Virus record (IMG/VR): IMGVR_UViG_2778261087_000001
Span: 1-30,286 of that record
Source: a virus
Lineage: Duplodnaviria > Heunggongvirae > Uroviricota > Caudoviricetes
Reading direction: 5' to 3' (one strand)
DNA: 30,286 nucleotides
The position numbers were made by a program, and so were the translations under genes. Position 1 is the first letter of the stretch; each line of letters starts with the position of its first letter. Under the pieces are notes generated by a model that saw only the letters and a program-made list of their open reading frames with translations, did not search any database and had not been told where the DNA came from. This document shows positions 3,352-30,286 of the stretch, piece after piece.

Positions 3352-3649
3352 GTTTAGACCTCGTTATTTTAAAAATCTGCACGACGTTACCGCGCGTTTT
3401 AATAACCGCAGCTAGCATGACAGCGTTGATAATGACCTCAGATAAATCCACAGCCATTGGCGTACGTAACCAGATTGCATAGGCGACACGAACAGGAATA
3501 CTGGCCGCAGCAACAATCAGGAAATAAGCAAGCCATCCTCCCCACCTTCGGTGTTGAGAGCCGTTACGCCGGAATGTGACAACGCGAATTGCTATGCCAG
3601 TGCAAATAACTGCATTGGTGATAAGCAAAAAAAACTCATGCGTTACCAT
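3341..3649 (-). CDS. holin-like / lysis-associated membrane protein
   Basis: 102 aa, about three predicted transmembrane segments, overlaps the endolysin start by 11 nt; GGAG 8 nt upstream of ATG. Confidence 0.5.
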
Positions 3650-4040
3650 CGTCTTTTCTCCCCGGAATTAACTCGCGTGGATTATCGGAACGGTGATAAA
3701 GCCATATACCAATTCGCACAGCGACAATTGACGACACAAATGCGCCAGCAGAGAAGACGATCCCTTTCTCGAAAGAGTCCTGCGTGATGGTAGGGATCAG
3801 GCTGGCTACACCGATAAGGATGGATGCTGTAGGTTTGTAAAAGAGAAGGCCGCAGAGGAAGCTGAGCATAGACAGGAGAACCCGGCGATGAATGGGATAC
3901 TCGATGGCTGAGGTAACAAAAATTACCGCCCCAGCCAAAGCTCCCAAAGCCACCTCTGGAGGAACCCCTGCTATCACCGCAGCAAGAGAACTCGCACTAA
4001 GCCACTGATTTAAAGACTCACTGGTTAGCTGAACTGACAT
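3636..4040 (-). CDS. holin-like membrane protein
   Basis: Multi-pass hydrophobic protein with charged C-terminus; track ORF begins at GTG 4049, but ATG at 4040 has GGTG 6 nt upstream and is preferred. Confidence 0.5.
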   Translation of the reverse strand: MSVQLTSESLNQWLSASSLAAVIAGVPPEVALGALAGAVIFVTSAIEYPIHRRVLLSMLSFLCGLLFYKPTASILIGVASLIPTITQDSFEKGIVFSAGAFVSSIVAVRIGIWLYHRSDNPRELIPGRKDDGNA

Positions 4041-4104
4041 AAAAAACACCGTTTAATGTGCATAAAGAATCCCCTTAGTTGGTTAGTTCATCATACACAA
4101 TAAA

Positions 4105-4160
4105 CCATATGTGGATTAAACTTGATCTGATAATTCTTAACGAAATTACCTTAAAGGTGA
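4105..4160 (+). promoter_or_regulatory. bipartite intergenic motif, copy A (CCATATGTGGAT ... ATTACCTTAAAGGTGA)
   Basis: CCATATGTGG at 4105-4114 and ATTACCTTAAAGGTGA at 4145-4160; same two elements recur at 6084-6150 and 24999-25077. Confidence 0.45.
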
Positions 4161-4261
4161 TATCATAAATATCCTTGTGTCATTTAAAATTAGAGTTAGG
4201 GCATGATAGCCAACATACAATATTTGCGTTTTCTCGCTGCATTCCTTGGTGATGACTTATC

Positions 4262-6031
4262 TTAAACAACAATTTTAAGGAAGTTTGAAGCATCCTTATA
4301 AATGGTGCCCGCGGGGGCGCCGTTTATCTCCTCAAGCGTTTTTACGTTCTTCAAAACCACCTTGCCATCTTCCAGAAATTCAATGCATGGTGCGTCGTTG
4401 TTCATTTTTATTTTCAACGAACCAACAGCACTATCTCCGTTTCCGCTTATCCATTCAAGTGACGCAATAGGAAGTGCATTGCCGTTGTGATCTGTCCCTT
4501 GTAGCAAGATCCTTCCAGTTCCTACCCCTGGTATTCTGATAGCTGCGCGACCCCCATCCTCTAAAACTACTTCCAAAATTTCTTTAGGATATTTTGTGTG
4601 CAGCCCTACACGCGACGTGCTCGACAGCCCACCACCACCAGGGACGACGGCAATACCTGGAATAAGCGATTCTGCAAAAAGCATCACTGAGTCTTTATGT
4701 GGATTGACTGCTGGGTTACCGTCATTAATGCCGCCCCCGATCGCAATCGAACCACCATAAGCCTGAATATTCTTACCTACAGCAAAAGAGCCATCTCCTG
4801 CCGCGCGAGTTTGATATCCAATGGCCGCCGCACCAATGCCATCACTTGCAACCCCGCCGGGGTCTGTAGTGTATCCCGGTCTGGCTTGCGTAAAATAACC
4901 TGTTGTAAAAGCCGCCCTTGAAAGCGCTTCCGTTTCTTCACAGAATGCGGCAGATTTTGCGCCAAGAGCAATGACATTTTTCCCAAATGCAAAAGAGCAG
5001 TACCCCTCAGCATTTGGTGAGGTAATATGATCTGGGTCCCCAGTGGCAGAACCAGCACCACCGGCAATAGATGCCACGCCGTACGTAACGCAGTCATGCC
5101 CGAAAGTTGTGGTGTATACCGCGAATGACGCACCGTTTCTGTTAAAAGATGCTGAGTAATCACCGATAAGAGCCGGGTTACACCATGAATTTCTCGGTGT
5201 AGGCAAGCCTCTCCAGAAGTTCTTTTCATCGTCAAGTGGTAGGAGATCGGCACCACCAATTCTCAGCCAACCTTTATCCTTATCAAAAGAAAAAGTGACG
5301 CCATCGGTTAAAGTAGATCCAACCGGTATACCGTAATTAACTTTTGTGCCAATCCTCTTAAGCCCGTCAGGTTGCGCCAGCAATAACAGAACATCTGCTG
5401 CACTACCGCTCTCAGGCAAGACCATAATGGACTCACCTGCATAATCATATGCATGGATCATATTTGCACGTTCTGCAGCAGGAGGGAGTTGCCGCGTAAA
5501 TGACTCTGGAACCCTTAACGTGTGCAGATAGTTGTTGTTACTAATCGTGTCTACATAATTTTTAGTGGCAGCATCCTGCGGGTCTCGTGGGTCGCGCAGG
5601 TTGCGAATGTAATTCCCCAGCGCGTCGTACCAGTTAGCGATGGTTGATGGCTTGCGCAGCGCCAAGGCAAACCAACTGCGAACCTGCTGGATCAGCATCG
5701 TCAGTTTATCGAATGCGTCTTCATGCACCTCAGCGAAGAACTTACCCTGGTTGCGCAGATCGGTATCCTGCGTAACCGGTAGCTCTCTTGATATAGAAAT
5801 CTGATAACCGTTAGCCAACGCCTTCGACAGAATTACATTGCCGCCGTTATACCCTCCCGCACCAGTGACTATGTAATCAGTATCAAGAATCAGCTCTGTG
5901 ATGTTCTCGTTCAGGTCAACAACCTGCACTACTAAATCAGATTTCTGGAAAATCCTGAAGGTATAAGGGAATGCCGTTGTAACACCGTTACCTGTGTATT
6001 CGTTGTGGTCAACTTCGGTTGAGACCGTCAT
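4262..6031 (-). CDS. tail fiber / tailspike protein with T7 gp17-like N-terminal adaptor domain
   Basis: 589 aa; N-terminus (YTGNGVTTAFPYTF...DLVVQVVDL...ITELILDTDY) resembles the conserved podovirus tail-fiber N-terminal domain; Gly/Ala-rich C-terminal part with lower GC at the 3' end; GGAG RBS. Confidence 0.7.
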   Translation of the reverse strand: MTVSTEVDHNEYTGNGVTTAFPYTFRIFQKSDLVVQVVDLNENITELILDTDYIVTGAGGYNGGNVILSKALANGYQISISRELPVTQDTDLRNQGKFFAEVHEDAFDKLTMLIQQVRSWFALALRKPSTIANWYDALGNYIRNLRDPRDPQDAATKNYVDTISNNNYLHTLRVPESFTRQLPPAAERANMIHAYDYAGESIMVLPESGSAADVLLLLAQPDGLKRIGTKVNYGIPVGSTLTDGVTFSFDKDKGWLRIGGADLLPLDDEKNFWRGLPTPRNSWCNPALIGDYSASFNRNGASFAVYTTTFGHDCVTYGVASIAGGAGSATGDPDHITSPNAEGYCSFAFGKNVIALGAKSAAFCEETEALSRAAFTTGYFTQARPGYTTDPGGVASDGIGAAAIGYQTRAAGDGSFAVGKNIQAYGGSIAIGGGINDGNPAVNPHKDSVMLFAESLIPGIAVVPGGGGLSSTSRVGLHTKYPKEILEVVLEDGGRAAIRIPGVGTGRILLQGTDHNGNALPIASLEWISGNGDSAVGSLKIKMNNDAPCIEFLEDGKVVLKNVKTLEEINGAPAGTIYKDASNFLKIVV

Positions 6032-6083: not shown

Positions 6084-6150
6084 TATTACCTTAAAAACCA
6101 CATATGGATAGATAACCCATAAATACGAACAGATATTACCTTTCAGGTGA
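6084..6150 (+). promoter_or_regulatory. bipartite intergenic motif, copy B (TATTACC-N7-CCACATATGGAT ... TATTACCTTTCAGGTGA)
   Basis: TATTACC at 6084-6090, CCACATATGG at 6098-6107, TATTACCTTTCAGGTGA at 6134-6150; about 75 bp upstream of the plus-strand ORF at 6227. Confidence 0.5.
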
Positions 6151-6226
6151 TTCGCAAAACGTGCTGGATAGCAAACAAATTATTTGATACTGTATATTTA
6201 TACAGTTATTGCATGGAGAAGATAAG

Positions 6227-6484
6227 ATGCAGCAGTATCACTATCCACTGGAAGACGGATTTACCGAAAGGATTCACACGCCGGGAGGCGTCAGGTCACT
6301 GGTGGAGGGATCGCACTTGATGAAATTACTACGGGATCTCGATAAGGATGGATTTAATGTCGATGGCCCACTTGCCGAACTGACTGCACTGATTAACTAC
6401 GTCACCAGCTCACAGATGTCTATGCAGGATCTGCAAACACATCTCGACTATTGTGCCGAACAATTACGAAAACAAACCAGATAA
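6227..6484 (+). CDS. hypothetical small protein, paralog of the Bro-N protein C-terminal domain
   Basis: Track ORF starts at TTG 6209; ATG 6227 has GGAG 8 nt upstream. Shares the pattern H-x-P-G-GV...L-E-S-LM-LL...DG-V-G-AELT...QTH with residues about 160-228 of the downstream Bro-N protein. Confidence 0.5.
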   Translation: MQQYHYPLEDGFTERIHTPGGVRSLVEGSHLMKLLRDLDKDGFNVDGPLAELTALINYVTSSQMSMQDLQTHLDYCAEQLRKQTR

Positions 6485-6796
6485 GGTTTGCAATTACCAA
6501 CTGGAGTGCTTATATTTACCTTTGCGGTAAATTTACATCGCACTCCTCTTGTGCCATAGTAATCGGGCACTGGCAAAATCCAGTGCCGGGATTGGCGTCC
6601 CGGGTTACTACAGAGGCACATATGCCGCATAAGCGGTTTTTTTATGTGTAAAGCGCACCTATTCTATGGTGGGCTGTGTGGGGGCACCGAAAGGTGCGCC
6701 GGGTCCTTTGTAGCCGGTTACGCCAACCCTGTACAGTTCACCACCAACCGATTGGCGTCGGTAGTGGTGATTAACCTAACTACAAAGGTGATCACT

Positions 6797-7483
6797 ATGA
6801 CTGCTAACGTAACCCCATCTGTTTTTCATTTTGAATCAGAAGCAACCATTCGAGCCATTGTTATTGATGGAAATCCTTGGTTTGTTGCCAAAGACGTTAT
6901 TAAAGCTCTTCAACTGACAAACCCCACTATGTCAATAAAATCTCTTGATGATGATGAAAGGGCTAAATTTAACTTAGGCCGTCAAGGCGAAACCAATATT
7001 ATCAACGAGTCAGGCCTCTACACACTGATCCTCCGCTGCCGCGACGCAGTGACACCAGGCACTATCCCCTACCGCTTTCGTAAATGGGTTACAGGTGAGG
7101 TTCTTCCTCAGATCCGCCGCACCGGAAGTTACATTAAAAACTCGCTCCCGCAGGAAGAACGCATAAAGATGGTTGCCGACCAGGTAGCCAGCGCCACAGC
7201 ATCAGCAGTGATGCAGGCAATGAAGGTAGAGAACAAAACCTACAGCGCCCCACTGAAGCCCGGCTACCGCAGCCTGATTCATTCGCCGTCTGGTGTTCTT
7301 GGACTGACGGAGAACTCACTGCTGATGAATCTGCTGAACCAGTTACAGGACGACGGGCATGACGTATCGGGCGCGGCGGCGGAGCTGACCACCATGTTCT
7401 GCTACATCGTCGGTGTGAGCAAATGCCTGCGTGATATCCAGACGCACGCGGAGTACATCAGCGACAAAGCAGGATTCTTCTGA
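6797..7483 (+). CDS. Bro-N domain protein (antirepressor-like)
   Basis: From ATG 6797 (AAGGTG 6 nt upstream): VFHFE...IRAIVIDGNPWFVAKDVIKAL...SLDDDERAKF is a typical Bro-N signature; the track extension upstream to 6644 has no RBS and is rejected. Confidence 0.7.
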   Translation: MTANVTPSVFHFESEATIRAIVIDGNPWFVAKDVIKALQLTNPTMSIKSLDDDERAKFNLGRQGETNIINESGLYTLILRCRDAVTPGTIPYRFRKWVTGEVLPQIRRTGSYIKNSLPQEERIKMVADQVASATASAVMQAMKVENKTYSAPLKPGYRSLIHSPSGVLGLTENSLLMNLLNQLQDDGHDVSGAAAELTTMFCYIVGVSKCLRDIQTHAEYISDKAGFF

Positions 7484-7510: not shown

Positions 7511-7547
7511 AAAATAATCATTGGCGATGTGATGTAGATTCGCGTAA

Positions 7548-7564
7548 TATTACCTTAAAGGTAA
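7548..7564 (+). promoter_or_regulatory. TATTACCTTAAAGGTAA motif, copy D, abutting the RBS
   Basis: Near-perfect palindrome TTACCTTAAAGGTAA immediately 5' of AAGGAGG (7564-7570) and ATG 7577. Confidence 0.45.
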
Positions 7565-7576
7565 AGGAGGCGCGAT

Positions 7577-7744
7577 ATGACAGCGTTGAAAAATCGTACT
7601 CAGCACAATGAACAAGCCAAGCAATGCTGGGATGTCATTGGAAAAGTTATGCTTGGTCGCGCAAGCAAAGAGCGCGACAAGGATATGGTTTACCAGACAG
7701 GAACATCTTTTAGCGACTTCAAGGCGGCATTTCGCTCCAAATAG
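7577..7744 (+). CDS. hypothetical small basic protein (55 aa)
   Basis: Below the 60-aa track cutoff; ATG with consensus RBS AAGGAGG 6 nt upstream; stop 20 nt before the next gene start, suggesting a two-gene operon. Confidence 0.5.
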   Translation: MTALKNRTQHNEQAKQCWDVIGKVMLGRASKERDKDMVYQTGTSFSDFKAAFRSK

Positions 7745-19266: not shown

Positions 19267-19874
19267 CAGGACAACCTCGCAATGGTAAACTCATCAACCG
19301 GTGGCTGTGGTTCCTGTGATTCATTCTGGCTATGCGAGCCAGCACTAAGAATCACGCGATTGTACATATTGAGGGCAAACGTACCGAGGTCTGCATTCCC
19401 AGTCAGCGCCATGTTAATGGCTGCCGCAAGACGCCAGGCCAGCGCCTCCATAAAAATGGCATCAAACATGTTTACATCTGAAACGCGAGAGACATACTTG
19501 AGCCATGCCTGCGGCTGGCCTGTGTAGATCAACTTTCCTGTTCCATTGGTGTCTGCACCCACTTCGTACTGGACGCGCATTGCTGCTGTTGGATTGCGTA
19601 CACCAGGAAGCATAATTTCAGTAATGCGCAGACAATCGGACGGGTACTGGTACGCATATTCCCAGTCAGGCGGTGGATTGTTCGTATCTGCAAGCGCCAC
19701 GCGTTTGGTAGCAAAGTTCCAGTCAAAATCAGAAAGCACAGCATCACGGCAGGCCTCAAAGTGCAGCGAACATTCCCCTGCTTCCTTGCTGGCTTCCGTC
19801 AGTCTGTTAATGCTGCGGCTGTTGCCAATATTGGACAGCGCACGATTACAGATCTCTACTACAGAGGCCATCAC
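19266..19874 (-). CDS. tail tubular protein A-like (gatekeeper/adaptor)
   Basis: 202 aa; N-terminal ICNRALSNIGNSRSINRL resembles the T7 gp11 N-terminus; position between head genes and the gp12-like gene. Confidence 0.55.
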   Translation of the reverse strand: MMASVVEICNRALSNIGNSRSINRLTEASKEAGECSLHFEACRDAVLSDFDWNFATKRVALADTNNPPPDWEYAYQYPSDCLRITEIMLPGVRNPTAAMRVQYEVGADTNGTGKLIYTGQPQAWLKYVSRVSDVNMFDAIFMEALAWRLAAAINMALTGNADLGTFALNMYNRVILSAGSHSQNESQEPQPPVDEFTIARLS

Positions 19875-20200
19875 TCACCCCCGTTACCGTAGAGGGTTTC
19901 AGCCGCTGATTTTTCTACATCACCGGAAACAGGAGCGATTGCCATATCAGTGATCTGCAGATCGGCGCTGCGATTAACACCATCGTCAGTTTCTCTGGCA
20001 GACAGGCCTCGAATAACAGCCTTTGCAGTTATCATCACTTCTGTTCCGACGCCCTGAGGTTGCGCCTTCAGCTTATTCAATGTGTCGTTATTCAGCGTGA
20101 TGCACAGCCCCCACGGGTATTCATCGCGAGTTCTGGTTTCTCCGCTCTCATCCTGGTAGCTGTCAGTGCCGGTTTTGAGGTTTACGAGTTCCATATACAC
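19871..20200 (-). CDS. hypothetical head/neck structural protein
   Basis: 109 aa ORF in the structural operon; stem-loop and GCAGGAG RBS upstream. Confidence 0.45.
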   Translation of the reverse strand: MYMELVNLKTGTDSYQDESGETRTRDEYPWGLCITLNNDTLNKLKAQPQGVGTEVMITAKAVIRGLSARETDDGVNRSADLQITDMAIAPVSGDVEKSAAETLYGNGGE

Positions 20201-20244
20201 TCCTGCAATAAAGGGGCCGAAGCCCCTTGTCTGATTCGCGAGGC

Positions 20245-20580
20245 TTACACGCCCAGTTCTTTACGCTTATCTGCGATCTTCTCGCGGAGCGTTTCGGCTT
20301 TGGCGTTATGGTGTGGCTTCTCGTTAAAGAGCAATTCGTACTCTTCACGGAGCTTATCCAGTTCACCATCATCTGACACATCGTTGATGATTTTGGTGCT
20401 GGTTGCTGCCATAGTCACCTTTCCTGCTACCTTTGCTTTTGCCTGTCTGGCTGCATCGTTAACAGGTTCCAGTGCGCTACCAGGCTCACCTTCGTATTCG
20501 ATTTCTGCCCCCTCCGGCCACAGTGTGTTATGGATATGAGAGAGGCGCAGAACGCGGTATCTTGGTTTCTCACCTGACAT
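20245..20580 (-). CDS. hypothetical structural protein (possible capsid decoration)
   Basis: Track ORF starts at GTG 20589; ATG 20580 with AAGGTGA 5 nt upstream preferred; charged, Lys/Glu-rich. Confidence 0.45.
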   Translation of the reverse strand: MSGEKPRYRVLRLSHIHNTLWPEGAEIEYEGEPGSALEPVNDAARQAKAKVAGKVTMAATSTKIINDVSDDGELDKLREEYELLFNEKPHHNAKAETLREKIADKRKELGV

Positions 20581-20590
20581 CGAAATCACC

Positions 20591-21028
20591 TTAACCAGTT
20601 AATTTTGAGCGGATCGGGTACGGTGTATTGGCATCAACATCCAGACTAATACCCGCAGTGAATTTGCCGGCCGTTAGTGGGCCAGTTGCGACGGAGTAGT
20701 TAACACGCAGATATCGCTGAACACCGGCAGGCACCTTTGCAGAAACAACTCGTTTACCTGCTGTCAGGGTAGCCTTTGCCAGTGCGCCACTATCATAAAT
20801 AGTGGACCATGAGCTGTTATTCTCACTCGTCTGCAACTGGATGTTTACAGTTGCCTCACCACTTGCCGTGGCGGCTTCGTTAACCAGCGCCCAAAACTCA
20901 AGCGGGTAACCCACGCCGATATCGCGACGATTTCCATCAATTGGACCTAGATCGATTACGTCAGTAGAAGCCGCGGTATCAGTTACCGCCTGTGCTTCGG
21001 AGAACATCAACAGTTTGTCGGTGATCAT
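20591..21028 (-). CDS. hypothetical structural protein (145 aa, likely beta-rich)
   Basis: GGAG RBS; Thr/Ala/Val-rich; immediately downstream of the major capsid gene. Confidence 0.45.
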   Translation of the reverse strand: MITDKLLMFSEAQAVTDTAASTDVIDLGPIDGNRRDIGVGYPLEFWALVNEAATASGEATVNIQLQTSENNSSWSTIYDSGALAKATLTAGKRVVSAKVPAGVQRYLRVNYSVATGPLTAGKFTAGISLDVDANTPYPIRSKLTG

Positions 21029-21042
21029 CTTCTTTCTCCATT

Positions 21043-21064
21043 AGTGGGTCTGTTACGACCCACT
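21043..21064 (-). other. stable stem-loop downstream of the major capsid gene
   Basis: AGTGGGTC-TGTTAC-GACCCACT perfect 8-bp stem, no T tract; possible attenuator or RNA-stability element. Confidence 0.35.
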
Positions 21065-21079
21065 GGTTAATAACAGGCG

Positions 21080-22072
21080 TTACACCACACGGGCTTCTGT
21101 TTCCAGAAGCGCATCAGTTTCACGGATTGGTACACCACGGAATGAAGTCCACCACTCGCCTTCTGTCTCTTTTACGCTGATCGCCAGAGATGTTTTCTCC
21201 AGAGATTGCAGATCAAGAGCCTGGCCTACAGTGCGGTTCATGTAGAACACCGGGCGACCCATTCCACGGTTTGGAATGCGATGCAGTGCTTTAACCATCA
21301 ACTTCGCAATATTTGCGGCAGAGGAAGGTTCTGAAAGATTGCTGACATCGATGTTTGCAATGCGAACAACATAACGCCAGTCACGCAGAGCAAGTCCGTT
21401 GTCCCATTTGTAATGGGTGCGATAGCCTTCGTACTTGCCGCCATTAGCATCTTCCAGTGTCACCTGGCCTTTATCTTCCATCTGGATGCCAGCCTTCTGC
21501 CCTTTCGGGAAGATGCCATGCACGGTGTTTTCGCCCCACACCACTAACCAGATTGAGGTGTTATCTGTACCCGTGCCACCAGCATCAATGATGTTCTGAG
21601 CATTACCCGCAGACAGGCTGGAATAGCGGGAGGACAGTCCCATAAACTGCTGAGGGTTAACGCTGGAATCACCATAAAACAGCGTCTGCGCCATCTGCTG
21701 ATTCATCGCTTCAATAAATGCGCGGTCTTCAGACAGGCGGAATTCAGCGGAATTGCCGTTCAGATCAGCCAGTGATTTATCGACTTCAGCATAGGTTTCC
21801 AGCATGCCAACGGAATCGGTTACCTGCACTGTGGTTGATTTGCTTGGCTGTACGCCATAGTTCAGCAAACGCCAGGTAGCTGAAGGTAAACCAGAACGAA
21901 TGGTGGTTCGGTGTCCGGTAGGAAGGTTCCCTTCGACAAAAGGCATATCCTGAAGGATCGGGTTAGTTTGACCGAGAAGCTCGATAATCTTATCGACTTT
22001 CCCGTTTGGATCGACGCGCTTACCCCAGTCAGCCAGCGTTAGCGCAGTTAAGCCTTTAACAGCCATTGTCAT
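21080..22072 (-). CDS. major capsid protein
   Basis: 330 aa, strong RBS (AGAGG), follows the acidic scaffold-like gene and portal; size and position typical of podovirus major capsid proteins. Confidence 0.75.
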   Translation of the reverse strand: MTMAVKGLTALTLADWGKRVDPNGKVDKIIELLGQTNPILQDMPFVEGNLPTGHRTTIRSGLPSATWRLLNYGVQPSKSTTVQVTDSVGMLETYAEVDKSLADLNGNSAEFRLSEDRAFIEAMNQQMAQTLFYGDSSVNPQQFMGLSSRYSSLSAGNAQNIIDAGGTGTDNTSIWLVVWGENTVHGIFPKGQKAGIQMEDKGQVTLEDANGGKYEGYRTHYKWDNGLALRDWRYVVRIANIDVSNLSEPSSAANIAKLMVKALHRIPNRGMGRPVFYMNRTVGQALDLQSLEKTSLAISVKETEGEWWTSFRGVPIRETDALLETEARVV

Positions 22073-22080
22073 TTCCTCTC

Positions 22081-22782
22081 TTATTTGCCATAGAGCACTT
22101 CGGCCGCACTACGCTGGCCTTCATTACCACCGGTGACCATGCCATCTTCAGACATCGCCTTTCCGATTTTCACGAACGTTTTGACCAGATCAGGGTGATT
22201 ACCCAGCCCGGTGGTGTTCAGATATTCTTTGAGTTCAGGTGTCCCGAACTGGTCAAGCGCACGCTGTGCGGCGCTAAGGTTAGAAATCAACTTGTCGCCA
22301 CCGATTTCTTTGTCAGCTTTTACATCCGCAGCCCACTGCTCGGTTGTTTTCTGCCAGGCTTCTGCCTGGCGCTGCTGAACACCTGCCAGAATCTTCGGAT
22401 AAGCATCAACCAGCTTTTGCGCTTGCTCGTTGGTCAGGTTAAGTTCTCGCGCCACCGGCTCGAATTCCTTCAACGCTTCTGTATCCAGCTCTACGCCTTC
22501 GGCTGCCTGAAACTCGTACTTCTCAGGCGCACCCTCTGGTTTATCGCCGTCCTTTTTTTCATCCTGCTTATCGTTTTCAGGCTTTTTGTCATCAGCAGGT
22601 TTATCGCCATCAGCAACAGGTTGTGGCTTATCACCTTCCTGTTGTGATGGATCACCAACTGGAGCAGGGTTATCACCTGCAGGCGCTGACGGTTCTGACG
22701 CAGCCGGAGCTGCTCCACCATCGACTGGTTGCTCATTGCAAAGACGGCGATACAGCAAACGCTCAAATAAATTCATGATCAC
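22081..22782 (-). CDS. scaffolding protein (putative)
   Basis: 233 aa, highly acidic Pro/Asp/Lys/Glu-rich N-terminal half and helical C-terminal half; between portal and capsid genes. Confidence 0.5.
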   Translation of the reverse strand: MIMNLFERLLYRRLCNEQPVDGGAAPAASEPSAPAGDNPAPVGDPSQQEGDKPQPVADGDKPADDKKPENDKQDEKKDGDKPEGAPEKYEFQAAEGVELDTEALKEFEPVARELNLTNEQAQKLVDAYPKILAGVQQRQAEAWQKTTEQWAADVKADKEIGGDKLISNLSAAQRALDQFGTPELKEYLNTTGLGNHPDLVKTFVKIGKAMSEDGMVTGGNEGQRSAAEVLYGK

Positions 22783-23075
22783 TCCTGTTCACTGGCCTCT
22801 TTGGCCATCTTCAAATACTGTTCAGGGCAATGCGCCATAACGCGCTGAAACAGTTCCAGCGCCAGATTGCGTTGCCCCTCATTAAATGCCATTGCCATAG
22901 CGTCCATCGGTGAGATAGCGGAAAACACACGGCCTTTCTCCAGCACCGACCAGACAACGCGACGCCCCTGTTCACTGCTCATGACAAAGCGAATGTCATC
23001 AATTTCACGCTGCGCCATGTCACGTTGCTTACGGGCGTTTTCTTCTTTCAGTTGATCGTCTTCGTAATCTGTCAT
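22779..23075 (-). CDS. hypothetical protein (98 aa)
   Basis: Charged helical ORF, ATGA-type overlaps with the portal and scaffold genes. Confidence 0.45.
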   Translation of the reverse strand: MTDYEDDQLKEENARKQRDMAQREIDDIRFVMSSEQGRRVVWSVLEKGRVFSAISPMDAMAMAFNEGQRNLALELFQRVMAHCPEQYLKMAKEASEQE

Positions 23076-24751
23076 TGTGATTGCCCACCCTGACCACTAA
23101 CTGCATTCGCCATAGCTGACAACACACTCGGATCCGAAGTTTTAGCTTCGCTTAGCGTCTTGGCCCCCTGTGCCGCCGCCATCCCCATCGCCATCATTTG
23201 TTGCTGCTGTTGTTGCTGTGCCCGTTGCTGGCGAGCCTGCTCAACCTGTTCCTGCGGAACAATGACGGTTGGAGACACTCCGGACATATCAGCGAATGCA
23301 TCGATCGCCTGATCAACGTTGAGTTTGTCGAGAGCTTCTGGTTTCGCTTGCGCAAGTTGACCAATGAAGTTGACCGTAGACGCCAGACTGGACAGGCCGA
23401 TAGACTTCTGCGCCTGAGCCATGACGGAAATGTATTCGACCTTCAGGGGCATACCTTCCATCGCGTCAGGCGGTGGCGGCAGCATGTTTTTACGCACCAT
23501 CATCGAGAAAGCGCGGTCAATGAGAGGATTAAGACATTCGTCGTTCAGACGCTCCAGAACCGGCCCCAACATCAGAAGTTTTTCTTCTTTCATTTCGATC
23601 ACTGCTTCAACAGGCATCGAGCGGGTATTGATGTTCTGCAACATCATGAACAGATCGACAAAGTAGGCGCTGTTAATGATTTGACGAGTGTCCTGAATGT
23701 CTGCTACCAGATCTGCTGTACTGGGGTTAACCAGATAAGCAGGCCTGAAGCCATCCTGACCAGTAATCTGATCGATATACGTGATGTCGCCAGGAAGAAG
23801 GGAGGCGCGCTGATTCTTGAGGGAAGTCGGAGCAACCATCGGCGGATTGGTGGCTTTATCAATCAACTGCGACTTGCGCTTCTGGAGAAGTTGCAATGCC
23901 TTAACAGGTCCAAGCGCCAGCATACCCGGGCATGATGATCCATAAACATCTTCGCCATTAACTTCCCAGCGCGGAGCCATAATTGGAAACTCATCAAATC
24001 CGGACTCACGCAACAACTTGTCGTTATCGCCACCAACCTCGTAATAAACCGATTTGAATGGCTTGTTCTTGCTATCCAGCTTCGATGTATCGCGGTCAAT
24101 GTTCGGGTAAACCGAATGCATCACTTCAATCCACTTCTCGTAGGTGCCGCTTTCCCACATGCTTTTTACGGATTCGCTGACGTTATTTAGTCCGAACTCC
24201 TGAACAAGCTGACGAACAGTCATAGAGAACTTGCGAAAACAGGTGTCCACACTGCCACGAGGTGAGTTAGCCAGGTAGTAACTGCCTATCGGGAATGGCA
24301 TTGTGCGAATGATGTCCTCATCATCCTCCAGCACTGCCATTGCACCAGTGCTGTATGTGCCTAGGCTTCCGTATAACTGCGGCAGTGACTGATAGAGATT
24401 CGACTTATTGAACATATCGTTCATGCGGTTCTGCACCGCCTCAAGCCACAACTTAACAGGGCCATAATCCATCATTTCAGGATCTGGCGTAGCCAGGCGA
24501 AACCACGGACGCGCGGGGCTTGTGATGCCTGACATCATGCCGCTGGCGAGAGTGCGCGCCGCTATAGTCCCGGTAGAATCAATAATGCGTGTATTGCGTC
24601 GATCGTTACGGTTGACCTCAGAAGTCAGAAAGCGGGAACCACGCGGGTTGATGTAATCACTCAACTCGCGCCAGTGCGGCTCGAACGACTGACGCTCGCT
24701 TTCAAGTTGTGCGAACTGTTTGTTCAATCGCTCTTTAGTTGTTTCCGCCAT
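23072..24751 (-). CDS. portal (head-to-tail connector) protein
   Basis: 559 aa, Gln-rich flexible C-terminus, first long gene of the head module after terminase. Confidence 0.7.
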   Translation of the reverse strand: MAETTKERLNKQFAQLESERQSFEPHWRELSDYINPRGSRFLTSEVNRNDRRNTRIIDSTGTIAARTLASGMMSGITSPARPWFRLATPDPEMMDYGPVKLWLEAVQNRMNDMFNKSNLYQSLPQLYGSLGTYSTGAMAVLEDDEDIIRTMPFPIGSYYLANSPRGSVDTCFRKFSMTVRQLVQEFGLNNVSESVKSMWESGTYEKWIEVMHSVYPNIDRDTSKLDSKNKPFKSVYYEVGGDNDKLLRESGFDEFPIMAPRWEVNGEDVYGSSCPGMLALGPVKALQLLQKRKSQLIDKATNPPMVAPTSLKNQRASLLPGDITYIDQITGQDGFRPAYLVNPSTADLVADIQDTRQIINSAYFVDLFMMLQNINTRSMPVEAVIEMKEEKLLMLGPVLERLNDECLNPLIDRAFSMMVRKNMLPPPPDAMEGMPLKVEYISVMAQAQKSIGLSSLASTVNFIGQLAQAKPEALDKLNVDQAIDAFADMSGVSPTVIVPQEQVEQARQQRAQQQQQQQMMAMGMAAAQGAKTLSEAKTSDPSVLSAMANAVSGQGGQSQ

Positions 24752-24765
24752 TTCAATGACTCCGG

Positions 24766-24972
24766 TTACTGACCAAGCAGCGTTTTACCGCTGGTATTAG
24801 CGGTTGATGTGTCGCCCTGAGAACCGGTAAGCAGCGTAGAACTACGACCAGCAGCAGCGCGACGGCGACGTGTTTCTTCGTCGCGGGCATCAACAACGGC
24901 GGCATCCTGCTCCTGTGGTGCTGCCTGAACTTCTGGTGTTGCAGGCACTGATGGTGAGCTACCCATGCACAT
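24766..24972 (-). CDS. hypothetical small protein (68 aa)
   Basis: ATG with GGAG 10 nt upstream; Ala/Thr/Arg-rich, low complexity; could be non-coding. Confidence 0.3.
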   Translation of the reverse strand: MCMGSSPSVPATPEVQAAPQEQDAAVVDARDEETRRRRAAAGRSSTLLTGSQGDTSTANTSGKTLLGQ

Positions 24973-24998
24973 ATCAATGACTCCGTACGCAATTAAAT

Positions 24999-25077
24999 TA
25001 TTACCAATTTAACCATATATGATTTATTTATCGTAGATAGTTGACATTTAACGCACGAATTATTACCTTTCAGGTAG
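24999..25077 (+). promoter_or_regulatory. bipartite intergenic motif, copy C, with TTGACA; candidate promoter of the tRNA unit
   Basis: TATTACC (24999-25005), CCATATATGA (25013-25022), TTGACA (25041-25046), TATTACCTTTCAGGTAG (25061-25077). Confidence 0.45.
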
Positions 25078-25399
25078 GTAAAGGGTTCATTACGGTTACT
25101 AACCTGACTGGCTTGTCGTTAAATTGAACAGGTGGAGTGAGCTTTTATTTTGAGCAGTACGGCGTATGGCACATGCGCCGATAGCGGTCTGGATACGTTT
25201 AAGGGGCACCCTCCCTTGCTCGGGCAAACGAACCAGGTAGCCGGAATGTGCAAGTCGAGCGGTTTTATTCCGCGCACGGGGATTCACCATCCCGGCGATT
25301 CGGTGTGACTCCTCGGAAGATACGAGGGTACAACGATGAGAGCATTTATGGAGCCGCGACAAAGTGTGGCGCCTTAACAGGCTAAGTGCTCTCAGCGTT

Positions 25400-25476
25400 G
25401 TGGCATTAGCTCAGTCGGACAGAGCAACCGCCTTCTAAGCGGTTGGTCGCAGGTTCGAATCCTGCATGCCACGCCA
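25400..25476 (+). tRNA. tRNA-Arg (anticodon TCT)
   Basis: 77 nt; 7-bp acceptor stem GTGGCAT/ATGCCAC, D arm GCTC...GAGC, anticodon stem ACCGC/GCGGT with loop CTTCTAA, T arm GCAGG-TTCGAAT-CCTGC, discriminator G, CCA end; acceptor stem differs from host argU as recalled. Confidence 0.85.
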
Positions 25477-25519
25477 GAATCACGCCTAAGGACCGTGATG
25501 CCAGAAGTTCCAGGTGCTT

Positions 25520-25561
25520 GGCGGTGATGGTTTCCCTTGAAGGACTATCACCGCCCTTTTT
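25520..25561 (+). terminator. terminator-like hairpin downstream of the tRNA
   Basis: 9-bp stem GGCGGTGAT (25520-25528) / ATCACCGCC (25547-25555), 18-nt loop, then CTTTTT. Confidence 0.45.
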
Positions 25562-25639
25562 ACAGCAGGACGCCATTGCGATGACTTCATGCTGTAAACC
25601 AGTACAGCCACGGAAGGCATAACTCATTGCTTCCAGTTC

Positions 25640-25663
25640 GCCCGGCGAACCGGGCATTTTTTT
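25640..25663 (+). terminator. rho-independent terminator just upstream of the gp49-like gene
   Basis: GCCCGG-CGAA-CCGGGC hairpin followed by ATTTTTTT, ending at the RBS of the next gene. Confidence 0.5.
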
Positions 25664-25674
25664 AAGGTGAGATT

Positions 25675-26055
25675 ATGAACGACCAGCAAATCGAAAAAGA
25701 AATCGTTGAGAAAGGCAAAACGGCACCGCGAATCACCCCGCAGCACATCGAAGATGTGATTAAAAGCGAGCATTACTTTACTGCTTATGATGGACGAAAT
25801 GGTGCCATTTCCAGCAACGAATATTGTGGCAGAGAAAAACCAGAAGAAGGCGATCGTGATTTATCACCATTGAAGTTGCTCACTTTCTGCGTACTGGTGC
25901 TGAAGAATGGCTTCACCGTCACCGGAGAGAGTGCCTGTGCAAGCCCGGAAAATTTTGATGCAGAAATTGGTCGGAAGATTGCCCGGCAGAATGCTGTAAA
26001 CAAAATCTGGATGCTCGAAGGTTACTTGCTGAAGCAGAAGTTAAGCGAGCAATAA
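25675..26055 (+). CDS. phage Gp49-like protein (function unknown)
   Basis: 126 aa, AAGGTGA RBS; segment LTFCVLVLKNGFTVTGESACASPENFD...IWMLEGYLLK matches the Gp49-like family as recalled. Confidence 0.55.
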   Translation: MNDQQIEKEIVEKGKTAPRITPQHIEDVIKSEHYFTAYDGRNGAISSNEYCGREKPEEGDRDLSPLKLLTFCVLVLKNGFTVTGESACASPENFDAEIGRKIARQNAVNKIWMLEGYLLKQKLSEQ

Positions 26056-26059
26056 CACC

Positions 26060-26071
26060 GTGACATGTCAC
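26060..26071. repeat. 12-bp perfect palindrome GTGACATGTCAC (copy 2 of 3)
   Basis: Exact palindrome 5 nt after the gp49-like stop codon and just before its terminator. Confidence 0.6.
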
Positions 26072-26075
26072 AAAC

Positions 26076-26102
26076 AGCCAGCCGATGAGCTGGCTTTGTT
26101 TT
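26076..26102 (+). terminator. rho-independent terminator
   Basis: AGCCAGC-CGATGA-GCTGGCT hairpin followed by TTGTTTT. Confidence 0.65.
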
Positions 26103-26145
26103 ATCCTCACCAGAGGATATCAGCAGTATTATCCCCACCAGCGGA

Positions 26146-27621
26146 TTAAGCATAAGGGTCATAATCCGTTATGGCCCTTCCCTGCTGGCTTTGCTGTCCT
26201 GGTATATTTATGCGTTTCGAGACCGGGAAAGCAAACGTCAGCAATAGCGCATCGCCTTTCCCCGGCGAACGCCCAAGTCGCTCCTTGATATCTTCCTTCG
26301 GTTCGATAACGATTTTACCGTCCACGCGAACTTTGTACTCTGCCGTCGACAGGTCGTCCGCTGTTTCTTGGTCATCCAGCATGCCGCCGAGCCTCAGCCA
26401 TGTCTTGCATGAGTTGAACATCTCCCCACGCTTGTTGAGCATCTGCGGGTCAGTAGACGCGCCACCGAACGGAACAAGTTGCCATGTACGACCCCAGCCG
26501 TCACCGATTGACTTCAAACCGGTTCCGTAACCGAAGTCGATGAACACCGCGTCAGCCTGATACTGGTCTTCAAAGTCAGCGATACGCTTCGCCATAATCA
26601 GATCGTCGGTAGTCTTGTTGCCAGTCCACAGCACCTTACTGTGTAGCCCCTGCCGCAGGTATATCACAGCGTCATCAACACCGGAGTATGCCGGGTCAAC
26701 GCCGATTATCACCGGAGCATGTGCAACCTGCGCAGCGGTTACCACCCGTTTCATTGCCTCGTCAGTAAGACCGGTAGGGATAAACTGCAATTCAGATGCA
26801 TCAGGGAATATGCCACGCACACGGATTTTAACGAAGTCGCTGTCTTCCCCGTAGTCATCAACCCATTTCTGCAACTGCTGTTTGTTGGTACCTTCCACCG
26901 TCCGACTGTCAATCTGCGCAGTTTTCCAGCGGTGTTTATACTTGCGGAAACATTCACGGAAACGTCCGGTATTACGAGTCGGGTTTCCGAACGCCACCCA
27001 GATGATTTCGGTGTCTTCGTCCGTCAGCGCACCCTCTGCTACCTCCCACACCAGATCGGCAATGTTCGACGCTTCATCGAATACCACGATGATGCGTTTG
27101 CGCTCGTTGTGTAGTCCGGCGAATGCCTCAGTGTTGTGCTCAGACCATGGGATTGCGTCAGCTCGCCACCGCTTGTCGTGCCCAGGGTCATTGCTGTACA
27201 TCGCGGTAGCGGTACAGGTAAACCAGTCTTTCGTGATAGCAAGGTTTGACCACTTGATAATTTCCGGCCAGGTCTTCGTTCGTAGCTGGTTGTCGGTGTT
27301 GGCGGTCACCACGACCTTACAATCCTCGCAAGTGGACATGCCCCAGTTGATCAGCATTGAGATGAATGCGGATTTACCAATACCGTGACCAGAAGCGCGT
27401 GCCAGCATAAGCGGCTGATAGCGCGTCTCTGGATTCTGCAGGTGATCACGTATCTCTCGGAACGCATCGGCCTGCCACTGACGTGGACCGGTGGCATGTG
27501 CCAGTTCAGTACCCTCTTCCCCCCACGGGAACGCATAGAGGGCATAGCCAAGCGGATCGTGAGTGAACCCTGCAATATCCTCGATTAACTGCTCTTCAGG
27601 AGATAACGCTGTATCTGTCAC
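26146..27621 (-). CDS. terminase large subunit
   Basis: 491 aa; Walker A-like GHGIGKS in the N-terminal ATPase region, acidic nuclease-like C-terminal half; 4-nt overlap with the upstream small-terminase ORF. Confidence 0.85.
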   Translation of the reverse strand: MTDTALSPEEQLIEDIAGFTHDPLGYALYAFPWGEEGTELAHATGPRQWQADAFREIRDHLQNPETRYQPLMLARASGHGIGKSAFISMLINWGMSTCEDCKVVVTANTDNQLRTKTWPEIIKWSNLAITKDWFTCTATAMYSNDPGHDKRWRADAIPWSEHNTEAFAGLHNERKRIIVVFDEASNIADLVWEVAEGALTDEDTEIIWVAFGNPTRNTGRFRECFRKYKHRWKTAQIDSRTVEGTNKQQLQKWVDDYGEDSDFVKIRVRGIFPDASELQFIPTGLTDEAMKRVVTAAQVAHAPVIIGVDPAYSGVDDAVIYLRQGLHSKVLWTGNKTTDDLIMAKRIADFEDQYQADAVFIDFGYGTGLKSIGDGWGRTWQLVPFGGASTDPQMLNKRGEMFNSCKTWLRLGGMLDDQETADDLSTAEYKVRVDGKIVIEPKEDIKERLGRSPGKGDALLLTFAFPVSKRINIPGQQSQQGRAITDYDPYA

Positions 27622-28214
27622 TGATTGCCATCCTGACGTTCTTTCAGTCTCTTCCTGGCTGCCGCTATGCGATCAGCAATTGTCACATTCACATTAACAT
27701 CCAGGCGTTCTTTGAATGCGTTGACGTCGACGTGCTTACCAATCAGTTCGAGGTTCTTCACCTTGTCAGGCCATTTAATTTTTTTGAGGATTGTCTCTAT
27801 CGAATCCTCGTTCATGTTCATGATGGTCGATGACAGATCAAAGCCACTAAGCGTAGTGCGCCAGATTTTCGGCCACTCGCGGATTGGCTTAAGGCTCCCA
27901 TCGTCGTTGAGGATGTCGATCACGTCCATCTGGTCGATCTCCACCAGACGCATGAGAACGTAATCAGCACTGACGCGCATTCGTTTGTTGCGCTCCTCCA
28001 TCAGCTCGGCAATCCGTTTTTGAATGCGTTCATCGCGCATCATGACACTGGCTTTAACTGCCGCTGTATTTGGGGAGAATCCTGCGTTAATCGCTGCCTG
28101 AGTCTGGTTTTCAGGCGTTTTGATGTATGACTGGCAATAAGCCTCCTGCATTGCTGTTAGTGGCTTAAATTGCGTTGATTTGCGTTTATAGGTTTTAGGT
28201 TCAGCAGGCATCAT
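27618..28214 (-). CDS. terminase small subunit
   Basis: Basic helical protein immediately upstream of the large terminase; track ORF extends to TTG 28292, but ATG 28214 lies after an upstream terminator and direct repeats and is preferred. Confidence 0.6.
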   Translation of the reverse strand: MMPAEPKTYKRKSTQFKPLTAMQEAYCQSYIKTPENQTQAAINAGFSPNTAAVKASVMMRDERIQKRIAELMEERNKRMRVSADYVLMRLVEIDQMDVIDILNDDGSLKPIREWPKIWRTTLSGFDLSSTIMNMNEDSIETILKKIKWPDKVKNLELIGKHVDVNAFKERLDVNVNVTIADRIAAARKRLKERQDGNQ

Positions 28215-28221
28215 AACCACC

Positions 28222-28250
28222 GTGGTAATAGTTACCGTTGTGGTAATAGT
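28222..28250 (-). repeat. two 11-bp direct repeats (ACTATTACCAC on the minus strand) upstream of terS
   Basis: GTGGTAATAGT on the plus strand at 28222-28232 and 28240-28250; contain the same TATTACC core as the plus-strand motifs. Confidence 0.5.
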
Positions 28251-28251
28251 A

Positions 28252-28283
28252 CCATGCAAAATAAAGCCGCCATAGTTGGCGGC
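28252..28283 (-). terminator. rho-independent terminator between the early-type genes and the packaging operon
   Basis: Minus strand GCCGCC-AACTAT-GGCGGC followed by TTTATTTTG. Confidence 0.5.
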
Positions 28284-28288
28284 AGTAT

Positions 28289-28522
28289 TCAAAGTCCATC
28301 AAATTCATCGTAAAAACTCTCGTCAAGATACCCTTCCCATTTACCGCGAATGAAAATTACATCCTCGCCGCAAGGGTGCTGACTGTCGATAACTATATCC
28401 CTCCTGGCGCAACCATACTTATGCATGAGAAATTTAACCTCTTTCGGAAAATTTGCTGAGTTATCTCTCATATCTTCAAGGTCGTAGCGTATTTTTGGCA
28501 TAACACCTTCGTGACATGTCAC
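28289..28522 (-). CDS. hypothetical protein
   Basis: Track ORF with GTG start inside the palindrome; alternative ATG at 28501 (MPKIRYD...) has AAGGTG only about 2 nt upstream; start uncertain. Confidence 0.45.
   Translation of the reverse strand: MTCHEGVMPKIRYDLEDMRDNSANFPKEVKFLMHKYGCARRDIVIDSQHPCGEDVIFIRGKWEGYLDESFYDEFDGL
28511..28522. repeat. 12-bp perfect palindrome GTGACATGTCAC (copy 3 of 3)
   Basis: Exact palindrome overlapping the stop codon of the 113-aa gene and the 5' end of the next gene. Confidence 0.6.
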
Positions 28523-28860
28523 ACTATTAATTTCGTTTCATGCCAGCCTTTAGTCACCCAGCATTGCGAGTCACCATTACACGGGCATGAATTCACAGGA
28601 ACTCTCTCGCCGCACTTACCGCAACGTTTTCTGCTGATCGATTTCATACGCCCGCGCACGCGTGCATCATCCTGGCGGATCAGTAACGCTATATACTCAC
28701 CAAATTCGTAAGGCGCACGCCCGGGGCGACGCGTGGCACAGTTACGCTCCAGCATTTCAATTTCCTGAGCATCAAGCACAATCTCCAGCTTACGTACACC
28801 GGATTCAGCTTGTCTGGCTCTCTGAGCGGCTTTGCGCTCTGCTGCTGATTTAGCCATCAA
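28519..28860 (-). CDS. hypothetical protein with C-terminal zinc-ribbon-like Cys cluster
   Basis: 113 aa; charged helical N-terminal part and CGKCG...CPCNGDSQC cluster. Confidence 0.45.
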   Translation of the reverse strand: MMAKSAAERKAAQRARQAESGVRKLEIVLDAQEIEMLERNCATRRPGRAPYEFGEYIALLIRQDDARVRGRMKSISRKRCGKCGERVPVNSCPCNGDSQCWVTKGWHETKLIV

Positions 28861-29131
28861 TATTCACCTTTATCGCGTAAACCTTTACCGGTTTATCGCC
28901 GAAGTGCGGATGTGTGATTGTCTTGATTTCATATCCGTCATACGGGACGTCAATTCTGCGGCTGGAATCGTCGCGCTTCGGATATCCCTTTGTGATAATC
29001 AGGCGGTCATACTCCAGGAACATAATTCGCTTATTCCAGTAGTCATTACACAGGCGATACTCTTCCGTTTTCTCTCCGCGAATCATGGCATCGAAGTATT
29101 CACCTTTGACGGCAAGTTGCAGGTTAGCCAT
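28850..29131 (-). CDS. ASCH/DUF3850-like domain protein
   Basis: From ATG 29131 (GGAGGAG RBS): LQLAVKGEYFDAMIRGEKTEEYRLND pattern resembles ASCH-fold phage proteins; track start 29152 rejected. Confidence 0.45.
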   Translation of the reverse strand: MANLQLAVKGEYFDAMIRGEKTEEYRLCNDYWNKRIMFLEYDRLIITKGYPKRDDSSRRIDVPYDGYEIKTITHPHFGDKPVKVYAIKVNIDG

Positions 29132-29388
29132 TACCGCTCCTCCAGTCTCCATACTGCCTGACCAATCCGGCTGGCGTGGGTATCTTTGGATACTGTTCCT
29201 TCATTAGCCATCTCCATAAGAATTTTGCGCAAATCTGCCGAACGCCATTCTTCATCAGGAAATTCCTTCTCCATTGCCAACCGCAGACTCCAGGTTGCCA
29301 TCCTGAATGGATATTCCCCGCCGAGAACTTTCTCTTGCAGGGCTGCACGGGAACGCATCACCTGCAAAACCTTCTCTTGAACATCCAT
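29131..29388 (-). CDS. hypothetical protein (85 aa)
   Basis: Track ORF, 1-nt stop/start overlaps with both neighbours. Confidence 0.45.
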   Translation of the reverse strand: MDVQEKVLQVMRSRAALQEKVLGGEYPFRMATWSLRLAMEKEFPDEEWRSADLRKILMEMANEGTVSKDTHASRIGQAVWRLEER

Positions 29389-30008
29389 TACGTCGCCTCC
29401 TGCGGCGGTTCCGGTAGCGGTATCCAGTGGGTTACATTGCGGCTCTGCGTTTCGAAGAACTCCTCACCATTGCGGACAACATCAAAAAACTCACCGTCTC
29501 GATATTGCGCATAAAGAACGAATGCGCCATCACATAAAATAATTACGTGCTGACCGTCCTCTGGCATTCGCTCACTACAGCTTATCCAACCATCCGGAAT
29601 TACCGGAGAGTTGCCATTTACATCGAAGTTTGGTTCTGCGTCCTGAACTAGGAGGATGTAACCATTCTTGGCTGTATCAAGTTCTAACGCCTCGGTTACG
29701 GTACCGAAATAGCGATTACCTAAATCCGCATCACAAGTGCTTACATCAATGGAAACCTCCATGCCTTCGATTAATTCTGGCAAGTTGTAAGTTTGGCTTA
29801 CAGGCTCTGCTTCCAGTGATGCCAGTGCAATTCGTGCCAGCTCACGCACAACTTCAGGGGGCGCGTAACGGTCATTCAGGTCATCCCACAGGCGTAGCAT
29901 GTTATCGCTACCAGGGTGAACATCATCGTTAGTTCCGGCAAGCGCACTAATAACCTCATCGGCTGCTTCAATAATTTTCTGTGCCTGTTCTCTGGTAATA
30001 GTGGTCAT
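29388..30008 (-). CDS. DUF551-like domain protein
   Basis: 206 aa; acidic N-terminal half; C-terminus ...VTHWIPLPEPP is the characteristic DUF551 ending as recalled. Confidence 0.55.
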   Translation of the reverse strand: MTTITREQAQKIIEAADEVISALAGTNDDVHPGSDNMLRLWDDLNDRYAPPEVVRELARIALASLEAEPVSQTYNLPELIEGMEVSIDVSTCDADLGNRYFGTVTEALELDTAKNGYILLVQDAEPNFDVNGNSPVIPDGWISCSERMPEDGQHVIILCDGAFVLYAQYRDGEFFDVVRNGEEFFETQSRNVTHWIPLPEPPQEAT

Positions 30009-30214
30009 TTGTTAATCCTTAAAACTTTATGCCCTGGCGCAAAAGCACGTGTTTTGTCTTTGCTTATTCGCCAGCCATCCTTACGTGCCTCTTTTGCACA
30101 GCCAGCCCATGACGTACCGATATATTCACCGAAGTCTGGTACTGGATATACACCTTCCGTACACTGGCGGCAGTCACAATAGAGATGCATGGTGTAACTT
30201 GCAGCGATAGCCAT
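30005..30214 (-). CDS. hypothetical small Cys-containing protein
   Basis: 69 aa ORF, ATGA overlap with the downstream gene. Confidence 0.4.
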   Translation of the reverse strand: MAIAASYTMHLYCDCRQCTEGVYPVPDFGEYIGTSWAGCAKEARKDGWRISKDKTRAFAPGHKVLRINK

Positions 30215-30286
30215 ATCACTCTCCTTTGATGCGAATGCCAGTGGTACTCATTCTCCTGATTTCCCAGAGCACACGAGGAACACCAC

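Follow-up and report, generated by a model that had tools for sequence, protein, structure and literature searches.

The palindromic motif that recurs between the transcription units of this prophage is very probably the operator of its immunity repressor, Rep (epsilon15 gp38 / phiV10 p40 / SPC32H type). We infer that Rep, possibly together with a Cro-like protein, is the regulator that binds it, because homologous sites are annotated as repressor-binding and the same palindrome occurs at the early promoters beside rep. The effect at each operator would be repression.

The DNA analysed here (the window, 30,286 nucleotides) comprises most of a phiV10/epsilon15-like podovirus prophage of E. coli (genus Uetakevirus) in the reverse orientation of the phiV10 record, and its nearest records are phage PH444, phiV10, TL-2011b and the O157 typing phages. 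The gene for the small terminase, terS (27618–28211), is on the minus strand, as are terL, the portal, head and tail genes, the tailspike gene (4262–6031, ATG at 6031) and the lysis cassette (2228–4040). This late strand is broken up by plus-strand insertions.

Form and distribution of the palindrome

Alignment of the sites gave a conserved unit consisting of a 15-bp inverted repeat, TTACC-N5-GGTAA, or 15–17 bp when written as (A)TTACC-N5-GGTAA(T). The first-pass annotation, every quoted sequence of which was present where it had been placed, had mis-parsed the unit as TATTACCTT-N3-AGGT and had described it as oriented with the downstream gene. As the site is a palindrome with symmetric position frequencies, flanks included, across 72 distinct sites, there is no basis for an orientation. 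Each of the five positions of the GGTAA half was 91–100% conserved, and the bases beside ACC and GGT (motif positions 6 and 10) were variable among the same 72 sites.

Seven distinct sites with no more than one mismatch were found in the window, beginning at 4146, 6136, 6516, 7550, 25063, 28214 and 28232, compared with an expectation of about 0.44. The site at 4146–4160, upstream of the lysis cassette, was absent from the earlier list. Exact matches to TTACC-N5-GGTA corresponded to four distinct sites (seven strand matches in the window, 0.11 expected), and TATTACC occurred 11 times against an expectation of 2.2. The repeated motif is real, with TATTACC at 24999 and 6084 representing no more than a half-site; both of these copies coincide with −10-like hexamers of a separate minus-strand element. 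Coding and non-coding DNA were separated using a gene map based on the phiV10 and TL-2011b annotation, which assigned 2,895 bases (9.6%) of the window to non-coding DNA and 27.4 kb to coding DNA. All seven operators are non-coding and none lies in the 27.4 kb of coding sequence (P ~7e-8 under random placement), and a control generated from the non-coding base composition predicted 0.10 sites. The motif therefore does not occur at a similar density inside genes, an outcome that had been named in advance as evidence against a regulatory element.

We also scanned the complete genomes of phiV10, TL-2011b, epsilon15, SPN1S and Tyrion. Each of these five relatives contained 14–18 copies with at most one mismatch (~1 expected), and map positions were common to all genomes scanned: a tandem pair just before terS, single sites between gp3 and the neighbouring opposite-strand insert, between the small gp19/ant gene and the tailspike gene, before the lysis cassette and before int, two or three sites below the repressor gene, three between the repressor and cro-like genes, and a pair before the DUF1064 or resolvase gene. 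Homologous operators in the different genomes retain the same half-sites and vary in the central 5 bp and the flanks. Such a pattern is the signature of a protein-binding site and not of ancestry alone.

The RefSeq record of epsilon15 (NC_004775.2) contains seven protein_bind features labelled ‘repressor / lysogeny’ with sequences of the form ATTACC-N5-GGTAAT, among them sites that precede terS and gp3 and one that separates gp19 from the tailspike gene. Its features at 12–27, 2931–47 and 19895–19911 are the homologues of window sites 28232–28246, 25063–77 and 6136–6150, respectively. These features may themselves be computational predictions. Literature text searches on the ATTACC/GGTAAT operator or on Uetakevirus promoters returned nothing relevant.

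The arrangement of the operators around the early promoters was examined in phiV10, in which the interval from rep to the cro-like gene contains three operators, one of which overlaps the predicted PR (TTGTTA-17-TATTAT). Two further operators, 62 bp apart, bracket the predicted PL (TTGACA-17-AATTAT), the −10 of which abuts the proximal operator. Pairs whose starts are 62 bp apart and which enclose a promoter recur in relatives (L004, 31953/32015 and 35070/35132; contig L051, 4433/4495 and 7539/7601). The half-site and operator at 25001/25063 of the window have this same spacing, which recurs at OL and before p45 in relatives. Tandem pairs 17–18 bp apart are found at OR in relatives and at terS. 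Both spacings are consistent with one Rep tetramer contacting two palindromes.

These comparisons bear on what the motif had been proposed to be, namely a promoter or operator recognised by one phage regulator that places the morons and the packaging operon under common control. The comparative evidence favours an operator, and the motif itself is no promoter. Control by a single phage regulator agrees with the presence of the same palindrome at the early promoters beside rep and with the epsilon15 ‘repressor’ annotation. The proposed regulon does include both the morons and the packaging operon but is not specific to them, as the lysis cassette also carries an operator; outside the window it appears to extend to PL, PR, int and replication-side promoters.

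Probable operators and the units that they adjoin

The operator TTACCTTTCAGGTAG (25063–25077, one mismatch) is positioned between gp3 on the minus strand and the tRNA-Arg/gp66-like unit on the plus strand, within the sequence TATTACCTTTCAGGTAG (25061–25077). It overlaps the −10/+1 region of a candidate promoter, TTGACA (25041–25046)-N17-TACCTT (25064–25069), and the perfect TTGACA and its spacing to the operator are kept in six of six genomes. The tRNA-Arg(UCU) gene (25400–25476, plus strand), identified by both ARAGORN and Rfam, is 3′ of this operator and of a leader of ~320 nt. On the other side is the TATTACC half-site (24999–25015), whose TTACC, at 25001, is separated from the operator at 25063 by exactly 62 bp. 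This half-site, possibly a degenerate partner operator, shares bases with a −10-like hexamer of the minus strand, TAATAA (25003–24998).

Two near-identical contigs, L051 and L054, were found by exact-protein look-up and have one mismatch to the window in the 10,899 bp from 19388 to 30286 (99.99% identical). This sole difference is at 25077, the last conserved base of the gp3/tRNA operator, where the window has G instead of A (GGTAA to GGTAG). A is present in 10 of 10 other genomes, consisting of five near-identical contigs and five reference phages. The G may weaken the operator (an operator-down mutation), or it may reflect a sequencing error or chance (~0.3% for a random SNP).

The leader between operator and tRNA-Arg (25078–25399, ~320 nt) is partly conserved in SPN1S, and in the equivalent part of the epsilon15 record an RNase III processing site is annotated. 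Folding of the 324-nt leader was marginally better than that of shuffled sequences (z = −2.0), and an Rfam search of 24950–25700 at a permissive threshold identified the tRNA only.

Two operators precede terS. As read on the minus strand, the distal operator, TTACCACAACGGTAA (28232–28246), is perfect and lies between a terminator and terS, and the proximal operator, TTACCACGGTGGTTA (28214–28228), has one mismatch. The pair is spaced 18 bp centre to centre, and the proximal operator ends 2 nt before the terS ATG (28211). What had been described as two direct repeats, the two ACTATTACCAC copies on the minus strand at 28222–28250 immediately before the terS ATG, thus resolves into two adjacent palindromic sites. 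Directly upstream of the pair is an intrinsic-terminator-like hairpin, GCCGCCAACTATGGCGGC followed by TTTATTTT (28266–28283, minus strand), which is conserved genus-wide. No sigma-70 promoter was predicted at terS. The gene for a 113-aa regulator (phrog_536, 28519–28860) is located directly upstream of the terS operators. A perfect palindrome of a different sequence, GTGACATGTCAC (28511–28522), overlaps the stop codon of this regulator gene and is followed by an extra 70-aa ORF (28289–28501; PF26882 Phage_T4_Y11B according to the contig annotation), which phiV10 lacks between its regulator gene and the terS terminator.

The perfect operator TTACCTTAAAGGTAA (7550–7564), part of TATTACCTTAAAGGTAA (7548–7564), abuts the AGGAGG ribosome-binding site of a 55-aa ORF (7577–7744). 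A candidate promoter, TTGGCG (7521–7526)-N18-TAATAT (7545–7550), ends on the first base of this operator. The possibility that the 55-aa ORF and a 147-aa ORF form a YafO toxin–antitoxin pair by analogy with TL-2011b was rejected; the downstream sequences are non-homologous, and PHROGs and Pfam assigned no function.

The perfect operator TTACCTTTGCGGTAA (6516–6530), within TTTACCTTTGCGGTAAA (6515–6531), is upstream of the isrK/C4 RNAs and the Bro-N gene. It lies between two predicted promoters, TTGCAA-17-TATATT (6488–6516) and TTTACA-17-CATAGT (6532–6560), and the start of the latter would be near the isrK 5′ end at 6567. Both isrK (6567–6643) and the C4 antisense RNA (6662–6748) are Rfam matches located upstream of, and overlapping, the start of the long Bro-N ORF (6644–7483). 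Together these elements form a P1 immI-like module in which a c4 RNA accompanies an antirepressor-type gene. Translation of Bro-N probably begins 3′ of the two RNAs, and the phiV10 and TL-2011b homologues are annotated as shorter.

Two further operators, each with one mismatch, are TTACCTTTCAGGTGA (6136–6150), in the divergent region between the tailspike gene (minus strand) and ant (plus strand), and TTACCTTAAAGGTGA (4146–4160), upstream of the minus-strand lysis cassette. The latter sits in the spacer of a plus-strand promoter-like sequence with an extended −10, TTAACG-18-TGaTATCAT (4137–4166). Transcription from this sequence would enter the tailspike gene at its 3′ end, and the homologous promoter in phiV10 and epsilon15 drives O-antigen conversion genes that are absent from the window. 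Because the genes driven by the homologous promoter are missing here, 4137–4166 may be an orphaned promoter. The gp3/tRNA, tailspike/ant and lysis operators lie in divergent regions and could act equally on the minus-strand late genes; three window operators are ~55–75 bp upstream of a putative late-strand start, which is not the classic occlusion position for that strand.

The Rep–Ant switch and competing explanations

No rep gene is present within the window. In contig L051, rep is found at 4568–5152, 4.6 kb past the window end, and its product differs by one residue from phiV10 Rep. The L051 operators are arranged around it as OL (4433 and 4495) and OR (5208 and 5256), with another pair before the DUF1064 gene (7539 and 7601). 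phiV10 p40 matched SPC32H Rep (5D50_A) with E = 4e-42, with conservation of the NLVNRW helix of the helix-turn-helix segment. The crystallised SPC32H protein is matched by SPN1S Rep at 100% identity and by phiV10-type Rep at only 42%. The Rep proteins of epsilon15 and phiV10 are also 42% identical and share the operator. We searched for covariation between Rep and its operator and found the same half-sites in all five genomes despite 42% Rep identity, so that covariation does not single out Rep over another conserved protein.

The second component of the switch lies in the window. The plus-strand ORF at 6227–6484 encodes an 85-aa antirepressor, Ant, with 88% identity to its SPC32H counterpart (PDB 5D50 chain E, E = 4e-47), a protein that was crystallised in complex with Rep (5D50). 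Upstream of ant is a canonical LexA (SOS) box, CTGTATATTTATACAG (6190–6205), for which the consensus is CTGT-N8-ACAG. Box and gene are conserved in six of six genomes compared, and by sequence they constitute the SOS-controlled induction switch of the prophage. The sites share with Uetakevirus Rep operators their sequence form, homologous positions, clustering beside rep (as seen in L051 and phiV10, outside the window itself) and the presence of a Rep–Ant switch.

Published work on the genus is informative with respect to mechanism. SPC32H Rep is reported to bind palindromic sites as a tetramer and to be released by tetrameric Ant (PMC9638917), and to carry a C-terminal tetramerisation domain of the looping type (PMC9986798). 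In the genus member vB_EcoP_ZX5, overexpression of the repressor cut holin and endolysin transcripts by >99.9% (PMC9782041).

We propose that Rep would read each half-site with one DNA-binding domain, an N-terminal XRE-type helix-turn-helix, at operators located at PL, PR and essentially every other transcription-unit boundary. In the lysogen, bound Rep would occlude the −10/+1 region or the spacer of local promoters; at 25063–25077 the −10 and start site of the rightward tRNA-Arg/gp66-like unit would lie under the bound protein. At terS, Rep would block entry into the packaging operon, either as a roadblock or by blocking an activator-dependent promoter. Upon DNA damage, LexA cleavage would derepress ant (6227–6484), and Ant would then strip Rep from the DNA such that all units are released together. 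At 6136–6150 and 4146–4160, which lie in divergent or formerly divergent regions, repression may not be the sole outcome. Some operators of the relatives are in promoter spacers of lysogenic-conversion genes (oac in phiV10, genes 21/22 in epsilon15), and the site corresponding to 4146 is one such spacer operator in both phages. As conversion genes with spacer operators are expressed in lysogens, simple repression cannot hold everywhere, and it is this position of the 4146-type site that raises the doubt at 4146.

The operators near conversion genes also argue against a binder that is a repressor only, and would suit a different phage regulator acting as a lytic-phase activator or repressor. 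Two candidates are the Cro-like 76-aa protein, which is encoded beside rep and matches a transcriptional-repressor PHROG, and the 113-aa phrog_536 ‘transcriptional regulator’, whose gene at 28519–28860 is directly upstream of the terS operators. Cro proteins usually use the same operators as CI, which counts in favour of the Cro-like protein but equally fits Rep as the main binder and is no alternative to it. However, the operators flank rep and overlap PL and PR, which is the classic immunity arrangement, a late activator is not expected at PL, PR or int, and the epsilon15 record labels the operators as repressor sites. We therefore consider it unlikely that either protein, and not Rep, is the principal binder.

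Tandem repeats beside or inside terS are typical of pac regions, and no promoter was predicted at the terS pair. This pair could be viewed as a recognition region for the small terminase that merely resembles the operator. That explanation is improbable, as the two sites fit the operator consensus exactly or with one mismatch, their half-sites are kept while the central bases change between genera, their spacing of 17–18 bp is that of the OR pair, and the distal site is an annotated repressor site in epsilon15.

Several operators abut or overlap predicted −10 hexamers, and the half-sites at 6084 and 24999 coincide with minus-strand −10-like hexamers, as would be the case if TATTAC and TACCTT were sigma-70 −10 elements resembling TATAAT in duplicated promoter cassettes with no dedicated binder. 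In a sigma-70 consensus scan, promoters abutted or overlapped only some sites (6516 and 4146) and none was found at 25063 or terS, and the motif does not supply −35 and −10 elements at a spacing of 16–18 bp. A promoter also gives no reason for a downstream GGTAA at a fixed distance of 5 bp, and some operators occupy a promoter spacer or the gap that separates a terminator from a start codon. Duplication is no explanation because the flanks of the operators are non-homologous. We regard this reading as very improbable.

Four of the seven window sites (4148, 6138, 7552 and 25065) contain ACCT-N3-AGGT, but binding by a host regulator of such palindromes, for example the MqsA antitoxin (site TAACCT-N3-AGGTTA), is scarcely credible, as the bases next to ACC and GGT, which complete the arms of an MqsA-type site, are not conserved among the 72 sites, the terS, OL and OR operators lack ACCT/AGGT, the operator flank is TTACC and that of MqsA is TAACC, and the motif follows the phage genus whether it is found in Salmonella, Enterobacter or E. 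coli. The −10 element, pac repeat and host MqsA-type readings were accordingly all rejected, and Rep is retained as the most probable binder.

A second palindromic box and the place of the probable Rep operators among known systems

A CCATATATGA box at 25013 had been listed with the motif. It is present at this position as one copy of a second palindrome, ACCAYATRTGGT. Searched as CAYATRTGGTT, the second palindrome has three copies in the window compared with 0.07 expected. All three are on the minus strand and 7 nt upstream of a −10-like hexamer: CATATATGGTT, part of ACCAYATRTGGT (25011–25021), upstream of TAATAA before gp3; CATATGTGGTT (6096–6106), upstream of TAATAG (6088–6083) before the tailspike gene; and CACATATGGTT (4103–4113), upstream of TATGAT (4095–4090) before the lysis cassette. 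The box was found in the same places in phiV10, TL-2011b, epsilon15, SPN1S and Tyrion, in which it also occurs within the spacers of several early promoters, and it carries no annotation in the epsilon15 record. By its position it looks like an activator-dependent late-promoter element.

A tentative extension, which we consider possible but doubtful, is that Uetakevirus uses a two-symbol code in which the genome-wide Rep operator is combined with the ACCAYATRTGGT box, the latter defining a new class of late promoter through a separate regulator. The box would then be placed 7–8 nt upstream of a −10-like hexamer at each late-strand restart, and the A-to-G change at 25077 would be a selected operator-down mutation. 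If this were true, a lysogen with the change at 25077 would show partial derepression of the head-gene promoter or of the tRNA-Arg/gp66 unit.

The closest known systems are the Rep operators of epsilon15, SPC32H and SPN1S (PDB 5D50, 5D4Z), which have in common with the window the palindrome itself, ATTACC-N5-GGTAAT, its relative positions (upstream of terS, gp3 and the lysis cassette, and in the ant–tailspike interval) and a LexA-controlled Ant. Unlike epsilon15, the prophage in the window has additional operator-bearing units (the isrK/C4/Bro-N module and the 55-aa gene), lacks conversion genes beside the lysis-cassette operator and has a private G at 25077.

The C1 repressor of P1 acts at more than 14 dispersed Op sites, including Op51, which controls the c4-icd-ant immI operon. 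As with C1, a single immunity repressor would here serve many scattered units, one of them with a C4-antisense-RNA/antirepressor module, and the position of the 6516 operator before isrK/C4 resembles C1 control of the P1 c4-ant operon. The P1 operators, in contrast, are asymmetric 17-bp sequences read by a monomer, whereas the window operators are symmetric; the proteins are unrelated, and induction of P1 does not proceed via a small LexA-controlled Ant. The stoperators of L5 are many copies of the gp71 repressor site in short intergenic spaces, some of them downstream of promoters as roadblocks, and the terS pair, with a terminator on one side and a start codon on the other, is comparable. 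Stoperators are asymmetric and strictly oriented with transcription, unlike the symmetric window sites, and the symmetry of the 72 sites separates them from oriented repressor sites of the L5 or P1 type. Tandem operators 17–18 bp apart (OR in relatives, terS here) and a multimeric repressor are features in common with lambda CI and its cooperative binding and looping. Lambda CI, in contrast, works at OL and OR only and loses its activity through RecA-stimulated cleavage, whereas the operators of this prophage are spread over the genome and its repressor is inactivated by an antirepressor.

The motif set is a rediscovery of the Rep operators annotated in the epsilon15 type species, and in this respect the advance is modest. 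For phiV10-type phages, which serve as reporter phages for E. coli O157, the operators are now precisely mapped. In addition, the moron-like units, i.e. tRNA-Arg with the gp66-like gene, isrK/C4/Bro-N and the 55-aa gene, probably belong to the Rep/Ant programme. Such units would be SOS-inducible and not constitutive lysogenic-conversion genes; the tRNA, for example, would serve as a translation aid in the lytic phase.
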